This document shows, one piece after another, positions 14,360 to 31,663 of a stretch of 39,135 nt of DNA. Numbering within the stretch: the first letter of the stretch is position 1; every line of letters begins with the position of its first letter. Source of the DNA: a virus (Duplodnaviria; Caudoviricetes); IMG/VR virus record IMGVR_UViG_3300012665_000609, positions 1 to 39,135 of that record, one strand, 5' to 3'. Both the position numbers and the translations under genes were made by a program. The notes beneath the pieces are model-generated. The model saw nothing but the letters and a program-made list of their open reading frames with translations. It had not been told where the DNA came from and ran no database searches.

Positions 14360-16378
14360 ATGGCTGGTAAATTTGATCCTAAATGCACGTTGAACATCCT
14401 TGAGATGGCTGACATGCATAAGCTTGTTGATGACATTGTAAAGAATGGTCAGCTAACACAAGCAGAAGCTAACGCTTTAAAAGCTGAGATGACAGGACGC
14501 ATCATTAAAGAGGGAGCAAGCTTCAAGAAAATACGAGCAATGACTGCTGAGTATGTAATCAATGGATACCTCACTGCTCCTACAAACATTACAACCAATG
14601 CGATGTCTGGTGCTGGTCAGGTGCTTCTCAGTCCTTTGTTAAGGGAGATGGAAGCCATTGTAGGCAAGGCAACAGCAAACAAGGTTGACCAACGTAAGAG
14701 TGGTGAAGGCCTTATCATGCTCAAGGGAATCCTCCAAGGCTTCAGTGAGGGTATGGACTTCGCTAAGGCTGGTTGGGTTACAGGTAAGCCTCTTGATTTA
14801 AAGGTTGATGCTGCTTCTTTTGGTATGACAGCTAAAGAGTTTAGGGATGCTCAAGTTAAATATGGCTTTGATGACATCAAGGCTGAAGCCCTTAAGGAAG
14901 TGTTATATGACCAAGCAACACAAGCCATTCCCGGAACTATAGGTAAGGTGTTACGTTTTGGTTCTAAGGCTGGTGTAGCTATTGATGAGTTCTGGAAAGC
15001 CACGCTGCGTAGAATGGAATTCAATGCTAAGGCTTATAGAGATGCTGACCTCTTAGCTGAAAAGTTTGGTGTGTCCAAAGAAGAAGCATATGCTAAGGCA
15101 ACAGAGAATCGTATGAATCCAGATAACTGGAATTCTCTGATGCGTGAAACCTTTGGTGTTAAGGGAACAACAGACATAGCAAACTTTGCTAAAGAGAAGG
15201 TGTTCCAAGAAAACCTTGGTGGTCTTGCTAAGACAGTGCAGGAACTGAGAGCTAAGAATCCTCTTGCTGGTGCTTTGATTATTCCCTTTGTTAAAACACC
15301 ATACAACATTCTTAAAGAAGGTGCAGCATATATGCCCGGCATTGGGGCTTTGGCACGTAAGGAAATCATTGACCCATTGGTTGGTAAAGGAACAGGGAAG
15401 TTTGATTGGGCATTGGCTCAGCCTGTACAAAGAGAACGCCTCATTGCTAAACAGATGTTAGGCATGGCTGCAACTCTGTATGTTAATGCATTGGTTGAAC
15501 AAGGAGCTGTAACAGGTTCTAGCCCTAAAGGAGATTTACCTAAGTTCTCTGTAAAAATTGGAGACTCTTGGTATAGCTATGCTCGTATTGAACCATTAGC
15601 CACCATGTTTGGCTTGGTTGCTGATATGCATCAAACATATAACGATTATAGGAAAGACCCAAAGTGGAATAAAGAAACAGCAGATAAGATAGCTGGACAC
15701 TTTGCTAAAGAAACTGCACAAAGCGTAGCTGATAACATATTGAATAAGTCTTTTGTTGAAGGCATTGCTAAGGCCATATCTGCTGTGTTAAATCCAGAGC
15801 GTTATGGAGATGCTTTCATAGAATCATATTCAACCACTGCCATCCCTGCTGGTGTGGCTGCTGTTGCACGAGGCTTTGACCCATATGAACGACAAGTAGT
15901 TGGCTTCACTGACAAGCTCATGGGACGTATCCCCGGCTTACGTGACAACCTGCCTGTGCGTTATGACAACATGGGCCAACCTATTCAAACAAGCATTAGT
16001 GAGGTGCTTGCTGGTGTTAAAGTGTTTACACCTACAGAACTTCAGAAGCGTTTGAATGAAGTTGATGTAGACATCAAAGGTATAGGCAAGAAGGTGGGGA
16101 GAGTTGAGCTTACATCAGACCAACTGTCACGCTATGGACAACTGGCTGGTGGCTACTTTGCTGCTGGTTTAGAGAAGGGTATGAATAGCCCTCAATGGCA
16201 GAAGTATGATGCTTTTCAACAAGAACAATATGTTAAAACAACTCTTGAGAAAAGTAGAAGTGCTGCTGCACGACAGTTAGCGGGTGAGCTTTACAAGACA
16301 GACCCTAAGTTTGCTACTGACTTCTATAATGAATATCTCATAAGCAAGGGCTTGCAAGGTCGAGTACCATTAAAGTAA
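14360..16378 (+). CDS. Large internal virion/ejection protein, part B
   Basis: ATG 14360 with SD AAGGA. IDEFWK, IIPFVKTPYNI and WYSYARIEPL motifs typical of large podovirus ejection proteins. Last gene of the arm. Confidence 0.65.
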   Translation: MAGKFDPKCTLNILEMADMHKLVDDIVKNGQLTQAEANALKAEMTGRIIKEGASFKKIRAMTAEYVINGYLTAPTNITTNAMSGAGQVLLSPLLREMEAIVGKATANKVDQRKSGEGLIMLKGILQGFSEGMDFAKAGWVTGKPLDLKVDAASFGMTAKEFRDAQVKYGFDDIKAEALKEVLYDQATQAIPGTIGKVLRFGSKAGVAIDEFWKATLRRMEFNAKAYRDADLLAEKFGVSKEEAYAKATENRMNPDNWNSLMRETFGVKGTTDIANFAKEKVFQENLGGLAKTVQELRAKNPLAGALIIPFVKTPYNILKEGAAYMPGIGALARKEIIDPLVGKGTGKFDWALAQPVQRERLIAKQMLGMAATLYVNALVEQGAVTGSSPKGDLPKFSVKIGDSWYSYARIEPLATMFGLVADMHQTYNDYRKDPKWNKETADKIAGHFAKETAQSVADNILNKSFVEGIAKAISAVLNPERYGDAFIESYSTTAIPAGVAAVARGFDPYERQVVGFTDKLMGRIPGLRDNLPVRYDNMGQPIQTSISEVLAGVKVFTPTELQKRLNEVDVDIKGIGKKVGRVELTSDQLSRYGQLAGGYFAAGLEKGMNSPQWQKYDAFQQEQYVKTTLEKSRSAAARQLAGELYKTDPKFATDFYNEYLISKGLQGRVPLK

Positions 16379-30137: not shown

Positions 30138-30695
30138 TCATACCTTTTCGTTGATTTTAGCCATCGCTTGAAGAATCAATTCGCTAGCGATTTTGTAACC
30201 CTTATCATAACAGAGGGCTTGAATTATCTCTAAGTTATTCAAGATTTTATCATCTTCGGAGAATGTAACTTCCTCTGTCTCTGCTTCCTCTGTCTCTGTC
30301 TCATCTTTAGGGGCTTTGCTTACATTGCCTTCCTCATCGATAACCTTGCTTCCCGATTCAAGGCCTCTAAGGTCTTTGACTAGGCTTTGCACCGATTCAT
30401 AATTGTCGATGATATTGAAAAGTGTGTTTCTTGTTTCTTGATTGCTAGCATGGTCGCATATTTTCTTGAATTCTGATTTTCTGGTCTTTGCCGTGTTCGG
30501 GTTATACAAGGTCTTGCATTGTGTGGCATACCCTTCAATCATCGCCTCATATTCTGCTTTATTTTCCACAGTGTAAACCCCGATTGTTTCCTTCAGGGTT
30601 TTCAAAAGCTTCCCGTTGACGTTAGCTTGCTCGCATGCGAATGCCGCTCCCAGTGCTTCGGGCGACGTGCCCTCTTGTTTCTTTGCTTTGCTCAT
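30138..30695 (-). CDS. First early gene, hypothetical protein (185 aa) with acidic linker
   Basis: Start re-assigned to ATG 30695 (SD GGAGG). DETETEEAETEE patch. Confidence 0.65.
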   Translation of the reverse strand: MSKAKKQEGTSPEALGAAFACEQANVNGKLLKTLKETIGVYTVENKAEYEAMIEGYATQCKTLYNPNTAKTRKSEFKKICDHASNQETRNTLFNIIDNYESVQSLVKDLRGLESGSKVIDEEGNVSKAPKDETETEEAETEEVTFSEDDKILNNLEIIQALCYDKGYKIASELILQAMAKINEKV

Positions 30696-30710
30696 GGTGT
30701 TCCTCCGTTT

Positions 30711-30730
30711 GGTTACTAGGTAGTTACCGA
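30711..30730. repeat. 20-bp direct repeat / palindromic box (GGTTACTAGGTAGTTACCGA), copy 1
   Basis: Identical to 30817-30836. Confidence 0.85.
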
Positions 30731-30755
30731 GACCCATTCTCTGTAACATGGTGTC

Positions 30756-30786
30756 ATTCTAACATGGTTTCAATTGTGCATGTCAA
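30756..30786 (-). promoter_or_regulatory. sigma70-like early promoter with a long spacer
   Basis: Minus strand TTGACA - 19 nt - TAGAAT, with extended TGn. The spacing is non-optimal. Confidence 0.5.
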
Positions 30787-30816
30787 TCGCTCAATTAATA
30801 CCCTACTAGAACATGG

Positions 30817-30836
30817 GGTTACTAGGTAGTTACCGA
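30817..30836. repeat. 20-bp direct repeat / palindromic box, copy 2
   Basis: Identical to 30711-30730. Just downstream of the sigma54 site. Confidence 0.85.
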
Positions 30837-30859
30837 TTGTTTCCCCATGCTATATACTA

Positions 30860-30875
30860 TGCAAGTGCTGTGCCA
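30860..30875 (-). promoter_or_regulatory. sigma54 (RpoN) -24/-12 promoter pointing into the early arm
   Basis: Minus strand TGGCAC-AGCAC-TTGCA, with exact GG-N10-GC spacing, in non-coding DNA. Confidence 0.7.
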
Positions 30876-30985
30876 TGTATACTTAAGTAGTAGTGTCGTT
30901 AGTACGTTTGTTTTCAGAAGCCATGGACTTGTAATACTTTTGTTTTCAACTATTATTTATTACTACTTATAGGTTACATTATTTC

Positions 30986-31063
30986 TGCACCATATCTGTG
31001 CATTTGACCCTTCTGTGCACTGTGTTGGTGCTTCATGTGCGAGAGTTTCCCCATAGTGGTGCA
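30986..31063. promoter_or_regulatory. Three NtrC-like enhancer boxes
   Basis: TGCACCAtatCTGTGCA (30986), TGCACTGtgtTGGTGCT (31016) and TTCCCCAtagTGGTGCA (31047), versus NtrC consensus TGCACCA-N3-TGGTGCA. Period 30-31 bp. Confidence 0.6.
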
Positions 31064-31230
31064 TTTTGTGTGACAGTTAATACATAGGTAGTATACTAGG
31101 TAGTTTCCCTATAATGCTTTAGGTTTAGCTTCTGAGCTACTTGTTTGTTGTTGTAGTACTTAGGGTTGTAGGTGGCATCAGTGGTTGCCACATTAGTACT
31201 CATACCTCTTTAGTTTACATATCCCCCTTG

Positions 31231-31243
31231 TAAGTGCTTGATT
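31231..31243 (-). promoter_or_regulatory. IHF consensus site
   Basis: TAAGTGCTTGATT, the reverse complement of WATCAANNNNTTR. Confidence 0.55.
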
Positions 31244-31368
31244 TGTAACACAAAAGTACTACCGGGGGAGGGGACAACTTGTGCCAATATATGCGGAACC
31301 CGTAAGCATACAAAAAAGGGCTAAAATAGCATATAAGTAACAATTATTCGCATCTACTAAAAAGATTG

Positions 31369-31381
31369 TAAGTTATTGATT
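31369..31381 (-). promoter_or_regulatory. IHF consensus site
   Basis: TAAGTTATTGATT, the reverse complement of WATCAANNNNTTR. Confidence 0.55.
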
Positions 31382-31489
31382 TATATAACTAAAAGTAGTA
31401 AGGCATTCCACAATGTGAAAAGGAGATTAATGGGGGGACAGAACAATTAGAGTGTCCAGTCTAAAGTGCACTAAAGTCCTAGAAAGTGC

Positions 31490-31518
31490 TTGACAAGTTG
31501 AACAATGTATGTTATAAT
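31490..31518 (+). promoter_or_regulatory. Consensus sigma70 promoter for the packaging operon
   Basis: TTGACA - 17 nt - TATAAT, with extended TGn. Confidence 0.85.
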
Positions 31519-31578
31519 AAATACATATAAGCAATTAAGGAAGCTTAGATAATTATAAACATAATAAGCTTAGACTTA

Positions 31579-31600
31579 TAAGTAACTATGTAGTTACTTA
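31579..31600. promoter_or_regulatory. Palindromic box copy with 10-bp perfect arms
   Basis: TAAGTAACTA-TG-TAGTTACTTA in the terS leader. Confidence 0.65.
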
Positions 31601-31663
31601 GGAGCTGCACTGAAGGACTTAGAAGCTGCACAGATGGGCATAGAAGCCGCACAGAAGGACTTA
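31601..31663 (+). repeat. Three tandem imperfect 21-bp repeats abutting the terS start
   Basis: GGAGCTGCACTGAAGGACTTA / GAAGCTGCACAGATGGGCATA / GAAGCCGCACAGAAGGACTTA. Confidence 0.75.

Follow-up and report, generated by a model that had tools for sequence, protein, structure and literature searches.

A conserved putative NtrC-activated sigma54 promoter near the probable leading end of an uncultured phage genome

Genome setting of the region

The window (the whole stretch of DNA analysed here, 39,135 bp long) is the complete record of an uncultured phage, whose genome is laid out in two arms: a replication arm on the minus strand, encoding a primase/helicase, a DNA polymerase, ThyX and a B12-dependent RNR, and, opposite to it on the plus strand, the arm of the terminase and structural genes. 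The region considered in this work occupies the gene-free gap between the two arms and precedes the first early gene. Neither DNA matches nor close protein matches gave a cultured close relative, and a domain search detected no phage integrase domain in the window or in four of its relatives. Sequences similar to the window are present in freshwater and plankton metagenome runs. No RNA run was among those listed; in one run that may be RNA, the contigs leave 30787-31605 uncovered, which counts neither for nor against transcription.

At the far side of the gap, a consensus sigma70 promoter (31490-31518, plus strand; 12/12 match) serves the terminase and structural arm. The left, leading end of the genome probably lies near 31297, followed on the minus strand by a conserved C-rich tract (31273-31265); this position was chosen because the first C-run is found at base 21 of the mapped left ends of phages ICBM1 and ICBM2. 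The contig of one relative (L003) starts 24 nt before the family C-tract, and that of another (L020) turns into library adapter sequence at about the position matching 31187, a single weak hint of an end; the contig ends of the relatives are scattered and do not map the genome ends. With an end at 31297, the distance from the terminus would be 234-311 bp for the NtrC-type boxes described below and about 420-440 bp for the sigma54 motif. Two sites matching the IHF consensus are also present, one upstream of the enhancer (31231-31243, minus strand) and one at 31369-31381.

The sigma54 motif and the NtrC-type boxes

A -24/-12 promoter motif of the sigma54 type is found on the minus strand at 30875-30860, with a predicted start at about 30849; among the seven matches at no more than one mismatch in the window, it is the sole exact TGGCAC-N5-TTGC, and it sits in non-coding DNA, oriented upstream of a gene. 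Three 17-bp NtrC-type boxes lie further upstream: box 1 (31047-31063; centre at -206, two mismatches), box 2 (31016-31032; centre at -175, three mismatches) and the promoter-proximal box 3 (30986-31002; centre at -145, two mismatches). Box 3 is separated from the promoter motif by a 110-nt spacer (30876-30985), 72% AT, which contains a degenerate IHF-like core (30929-30917). The motif, the three boxes and the AT-rich spacer had all been described in the original prediction, and were recovered base for base. The scans used general consensus motifs, with the E. coli glnAp2 sites (NC_000913.3), whose boxes are 32 nt apart, as a control; boxes 2 and 3 are each identical to the glnAp2 sites at 13 of 17 positions, box 3 to each of the two sites. 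The window has at least two in-phase TGCACCA-N3-TGGTGCA-like boxes more than 70 bp upstream of the motif, a feature of NtrC-activated promoters of the glnAp2/glnHp2 type. An eroded sigma54-like word lacking the GG overlaps box 1 (31060-31076, minus strand) and is largely conserved in the clade.

Taken singly, these elements are close to chance expectation (seven sigma54-like matches in the window versus 4.6 expected, four NtrC-like matches versus 3.3), and since relaxing the sigma54 pattern gives 8-13 matches per genome, single sigma54 hits were not taken as evidence. The layout is another matter: none of 150 simulated 39-kb sequences had three boxes within 100 nt, or an exact sigma54 motif preceded by two boxes at a distance of 60-250 nt. 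This simulation, together with the conservation in relatives, rules out a chance origin of the layout.

Conservation among close relatives

A search with gene 1, the first early gene, gave 19 loci at 77-90% identity, that is, 20 sequences with the window. In all 20, box 3 is followed after exactly 110 nt by the sigma54 motif (mean identity within the spacer, 72%); the expected conservation of motif and spacing in the equivalent regions of related phages is therefore seen in every one of the 19 relatives. Intervals were counted in 16 members, comprising L015, L022 and 14 non-redundant sequences: box 1 to box 2 measures 31 nt and box 3 to the sigma54 motif 127 nt in 16/16, and box 2 to box 3 measures either 30 nt (11/16) or 40 nt (5/16), a difference of one helical turn. 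Unlike these, five neighbouring intervals take three to seven lengths each in the same members. Such fixed intervals are the pattern expected if the proteins presumed to occupy the sites must face and contact each other.

The substitutions follow the motifs as well. Averaged over pairs of the 14 non-redundant members, positions that define a motif have an identity of 0.92, compared with 0.72 for the spacer and 0.67 for the positions within motifs that are free to vary; in box 3, 11 of the 14 defined positions are invariant and none of the three central ones. The GG and GC of the sigma54 core, GG-N10-GC, are kept at the exact spacing in 16/16 members, the interior varying (nine variants), and variation around the NtrC palindrome goes down to zero mismatches in one member (L016). 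The spacer is not neutral, 39 of its 110 positions being invariant; its IHF core, which lies between enhancer and promoter as does the IHF site of glnHp2-type promoters, scores 6/9 in the window, 9/9 in L014 and L015, 8/9 in one further member and 3-6/9 in 13 of the 16.

The downstream promoter, the X-boxes and gene 1

A sigma70-type promoter (30756-30786, minus strand) follows the sigma54 motif. It consists of an extended -10 (30764-30756) with a TTGACA at a 19-nt spacer; the sigma70-like promoter that had been proposed here is present, but its long spacer makes an extended -10 promoter the better reading. The extended -10 is kept in 15/15 members covering the region, and TTGACA occurs at 19-20 nt in most of them, the -35 being lost in two (L013 and L017).

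Two identical 18-bp palindromes, GGTWACT-N4-AGTWACC (hereafter X-boxes), accompany the two promoters: X-box 1 (30817-30834) covers +15 to +32 of the predicted sigma54 start and X-box 2 (30711-30728) approximately +21 to +38 of the predicted sigma70 start. The pair was correctly anticipated, but it is not local to the region, the motif having eight copies in the window (at 16374, 21808, 23889, 27408, 29979, 30711, 30817 and 31581) and 8-10 copies in each of four relatives (4/4), versus none for a control motif; some copies lie inside coding sequence. A host regulon was considered as the source of the motif and rejected, as in 301 genomes of one bacterial order (that of the metagenome-assembled genome G001, see below) no enrichment was observed: eight of the 301 have one match and none has more, with six for the control. 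Since a copy is found just downstream of each predicted early start, the X-box is likely to be an operator for a phage-encoded protein that would shut off the early promoters.

The 154-nt leader shows no conserved covarying structure; two small stems form on the X-boxes (-7.3 kcal/mol), with compensatory changes in 3 of 13 pairs, so that a structured leader RNA or riboswitch finds no support. The leader ends in a ribosome-binding site (30706-30701) and gene 1 (30695-30138, minus strand; the whole unit spanning 30138-30706), which encodes a 185-aa helical protein. Gene 1 has 156 homologues, with no functional name among the 120 listed, and gave neither a significant family match nor a fold match. 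In four relatives (L005, L009, L010 and L011) an extra small ORF is present between X-box 2 and gene 1, the promoter block being unchanged.

A sister lineage with the same arrangement

A composite pattern scan of viral contigs returned 52 stretches, including family members at 52-82% terminase identity. One of these motif hits, L112 (large terminase about 53% identical to that of the window), was used to seed a terminase search, so that the choice of this sister lineage is motif-biased and that of its members is not. The search gave 80 loci, 73 with a small terminase, 51 of them long enough and 47 non-redundant. A forward sigma54 site is present in 33/47 and at least two boxes 60-250 nt upstream of the site in 13/47; at least two boxes at no more than three mismatches are found in only 14/47. 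The 14 distinct box spacings include 11 that fall within 2 bp of whole helical turns (40% expected; p=0.004, the values not being independent).

Thirty-seven non-redundant forward sigma54 sites were collected from 40 of the 80 loci, and 31 of the 37 lie 52-100 nt before the RBS-ATG of the first gene; in 25 of these 31, the stretch from -200 to the ATG contains no sigma70-like consensus, in a scan whose miss rate is unmeasured. The sigma54 promoter thus appears, judging from motif content, to be the only one at the head of the arm in this lineage. As the first ORFs behind the sites belong to 15 unrelated groups, the promoter heads the arm rather than a particular gene. In 12 of the 31 loci the first ORF is a hydrophobic peptide of 25-27 aa (L297:1994-2068, minus strand, and 11 others). 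A conserved AT-rich quasi-palindrome is also seen at -30 to -10 from the sigma54 motif (e.g., in L359, L302 and L342), either IHF-like or belonging to another factor, whose AGTA-TACA core is located at offset -30 for 24 of the 37 sites; a similar word occurs at about -22 in the clade of the window.

Arrays of host-protein sites in distant relatives

In more distant relatives, the corresponding slot, which precedes the terminase genes, is occupied differently. A terminase search from the window gave 74 loci (70-80% identity), 62 with a small terminase and 38 with enough upstream DNA. A sigma54 site is present in the slot of 21/38, several in 16/38 and DnaA boxes in 17/38, at least two NtrC boxes being found in only 2/38; over these relatives, sigma54 sites total 51 in forward and 13 in reverse orientation, where shuffles give about 1 each, and DnaA boxes total 60, where shuffles give about 0.2. 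A second terminase set (69 loci fetched, 50 long enough, 46 non-redundant, with 11 close-clade loci left out) has forward sigma54 sites in 22/46, DnaA boxes in 22/46 and NtrC pairs in 0/46.

The sigma54 sites of these relatives often follow one another in tandem or face each other head to head, with DnaA boxes interspersed among them, an arrangement needed by no promoter. Arrays of three to nine sigma54 motifs without NtrC pairs, in which some motifs are spaced by 26-28 nt or oppose each other, lie upstream of terS near the probable genome end in L085, L099, L065, L077, L078, L434, L437 and L440. In the same slot, five to ten exact DnaA boxes are found in L096, L081, L086, L075 and L059, and a parS-like palindrome, recalling the Spo0J sites of phi29, in L028, L306, L307, L309 and L358. 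Four family members (L102, L114, L137 and L143) have a head-to-head sigma54 pair right after the C-tract, with NtrC boxes downstream of the pair, and L114 also has repeated TGTTGC-N3-GCA words, which resemble PhaR/PhbF sites. Three viral contigs without a match to proteins of the window (L110:780-1200, L113:1900-2350 and L139:2900-3300) combine dense perfect NtrC boxes, seven of them in L110, with head-to-head sigma54 pairs and Fur-like boxes. The slot is thus a modular patch of sites for host proteins, and selection in the array-bearing lineages may act on binding itself. The suggestion that such sites serve as decoys titrating NtrC or RpoN fits these other relatives, with their sigma54 and DnaA arrays and almost no NtrC pairs in the slot; for the DnaA arrays, titration of DnaA or a role in entry, as proposed for T5, is possible.

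Activator, host and nitrogen link

According to the account in PMC7408454, nitrogen limitation in E. coli leads to phosphorylation of NtrC, which binds to sites arranged in tandem upstream and, through looping, opens the sigma54 complex. The sigma54-activator ATPase domain (PF00158) was found in none of six records (the window and five relatives), and the Fis/NtrC-type HTH (PF02954) in none of five genomes including the window; the phage, as had been claimed, appears to encode no activator of its own, so that activation would have to come from the host. The putative link of the phage promoter to nitrogen is drawn from the identity of its motifs. As a partial control for the pattern, 119 metagenome stretches were collected and 30 of their 89 ORFs scanned against Pfam: where a full box accompanies the sigma54 motif, the 15 ORFs that follow comprise three amino-acid-binding, one urea-type and one Gcw_chp protein (genes of kinds targeted by NtrC), two others and eight with no Pfam match.

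Several candidate clues to the host were discarded. The metagenome-assembled genome G001 encodes both rpoN and ntrBC, and its terminase-bearing contig differs in gene order upstream; six GTDB hits to terL belong to unrelated taxa and look like binned phage contigs; the locus L154, in a Burkholderiales assembly, has a different gene context. A cluster look-up returned no host names.

Comparison with known systems

The region is built like E. coli glnAp2, in which a -24/-12 motif is likewise preceded by NtrC boxes in tandem, spaced by about three turns (compare the description in PMC7408454), and it is by this sequence anatomy that it is called a putative NtrC-activated promoter. It differs from glnAp2 in having three boxes, a proximal box 127 nt (instead of 90) from the motif and a sigma70 promoter downstream, in driving phage early genes and in that the activator gene is not on the replicon. 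In E. coli, glnAp2 is itself paired with a sigma70 promoter, glnAp1.

The original prediction knew of no described phage system of this kind. This holds for the NtrC enhancer, none having been found in a phage in the open-access literature (supplements excluded), but not for the broader wiring. Promoter P015 of the lytic Pseudomonas phage YuA is a sigma54-like promoter of host type beside sigma70 promoters, for which, unlike the window, no enhancer, activator or nitrogen link is named in the passages that describe it (PMC10914365). Virulent phages under host regulators are likewise in print, Spo0A and Spo0J acting on phi29 and CtrA on CbK-like phages ("lytic deferment"); as presented in that account (PMC9437464), they share with the window a cis-only wiring of phage genes to a host-state regulator, and differ from it in the regulators and signals involved and in the ATP-dependent, enhancer-type activation proposed here, apparently at the promoter heading the early arm. 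The injection-stop region of T5 has DnaA boxes in first-entering non-coding DNA, like the arrays of the distant relatives, and the sections concerned (10.1101/866236) propose no promoter role and leave sigma factors unmentioned. The bEBP-like phage protein in the relevant part of the Htm preprint (10.64898/2026.10.06.757011) is something different from a host-driven promoter.

As to affiliation, the cobaviruses (Zobellviridae), as portrayed in PMC6775973, share with the window a two-arm layout of about 40 kb, the B12-dependent RNR, ThyX and a C-rich left end, and the primase/helicase of the window is 45% identical to its cobavirus counterpart. With regard to membership of Zobellviridae/Cobavirinae, the two-arm layout is thus found, and cobavirus capsid, portal and terminase proteins are not among the matches listed (all 26 for the portal, the best 30 of 46 for the capsid and the best 50 of 1509 for the terminase), in a collection that contains cobaviruses; none of the 50 terminase matches covers 80%. 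The first 900 nt of ICBM1 and ICBM2 contain no sigma54, NtrC or DnaA motif. Near the left end of these two cultured cobaviruses there is a palindrome (L162:144 and L163:284, respectively) resembling the Zur consensus.

Proposed mechanism and alternative explanations

We consider it fairly probable, from the anatomy described above, that the region is a working NtrC-activated sigma54 promoter near the leading end of the genome, which boosts early transcription in nitrogen-limited hosts by OR logic with the sigma70-type promoter. The conserved nitrogen-type promoter and the absence of a detectable phage-encoded activator make it likely that the host nitrogen regulator boosts the start of infection, and that the sigma70-type promoter follows the sigma54 motif argues for a boost rather than a gate. 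The region would belong to the leading ~450 bp of the linear genome and so be the first to enter the cell. Host sigma54 holoenzyme would form a closed complex at 30875-30860; phosphorylated host NtrC would oligomerise on the boxes, loop across the fixed-length spacer, perhaps aided by IHF or intrinsic bending, and open the complex, and transcription from near 30849 would proceed through gene 1 to the replication arm. NtrC-independent expression would come from the extended -10 promoter further down, and both promoters would at a later stage be turned off by a phage protein bound to the X-boxes, which lie a short way past each start. Of the wiring to host NtrBC and RpoN originally proposed, the promoter-enhancer anatomy stands, being conserved in 19 relatives and recurring in the sister lineage; a strict gate is unlikely in the clade of the window, as the extended -10 promoter follows in all 15 covering members.

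A rather unlikely alternative treats the leading end as a landing pad on which abundant host proteins settle (sigma54 holoenzyme, NtrC, DnaA, IHF, Fur and ParB), with selection for binding and not for transcription; the bound proteins would coat or ratchet the entering DNA, shield its end, or be titrated after genome amplification. The crowding of the slot in the 38 relatives (51 forward and 13 reverse sigma54 sites, 60 DnaA boxes), the nine sigma54 sites of L085 and L099, including head-to-head pairs, the parS-like site of L028, the seven perfect NtrC boxes of L110 and the DnaA boxes that T5-like phages have in their terminal repeat, at least as set out in 10.1101/866236, all point this way. 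It leaves unexplained, however, the single forward site and the invariant enhancer-promoter distance, as well as the fixed placement of the site, in the sister lineage, immediately ahead of the first RBS, and the slot of the window has no DnaA box. The two roles may coexist.

It is improbable that the sigma54 promoter is a true one whose boxes are read by some other host enhancer-binding protein, or by a Fis-family protein with an NtrC-like DNA-binding domain (the DNA-binding domains of NtrC and Fis are related), the signal then not being nitrogen. The boxes of the window do have two to three mismatches, those of the sister lineage are more degenerate and most of its members lack a clear pair; only 5 of the 15 metagenome ORFs were of the amino-acid/urea transport or Gcw_chp type, eight having no Pfam match. 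Yet variation in the clade stays near the NtrC palindrome, down to zero mismatches in L016, and the 13/17 identity of boxes 2 and 3 to the glnAp2 sites speaks against another reader. Even less credit is given to a reading in which the conserved words only look like host motifs and are either signals addressed to phage proteins, for the terminus, packaging or replication, or a sigma70 promoter, weak and overlapping. It is true that the region is next to the probable genome end and upstream of the terminase genes, that TACA and TAGTAT are conserved as flanks, and that the X-box is a motif of the phage's own; such a reading would nevertheless require two independent coincidences, correct in order, strand and distance, and the boxes come and go across the family as the C-tract stays. 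The overlapping TATACA-N16-TAGTAT, already named as a possible driver, is itself weakened: TAGTAT is kept in 15/16 members and TATACA in 11/16, so that the -35 candidate decays in 5/16, and it is missing from the sister-lineage consensus.

Biological significance

For the phage of the window, a boost of this kind would likely have the benefit of maintaining early expression in starved hosts. It may further be suggested, tentatively, that in a widespread group of uncultured podoviruses the first ~500 bp act as a swappable panel of host-state sensors, and that in the sister lineage early expression, perhaps together with transcription-driven entry, is gated by host nitrogen, infection being committed only when the Ntr system is on. 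The Zur-like box of ICBM1 and ICBM2 offers a cultured model for the use of host sites at genome ends. Nutrient limitation is generally regarded as acting on lysis in aquatic systems only passively, via the resources of the host; a cis-encoded NtrC/sigma54 input on a phage in which no integrase was found would actively couple infection to the nitrogen status of the host, and a genome-end slot repeatedly filled with sigma54, DnaA, NtrC, IHF and Fur sites raises the question of what the first-entering DNA recruits.
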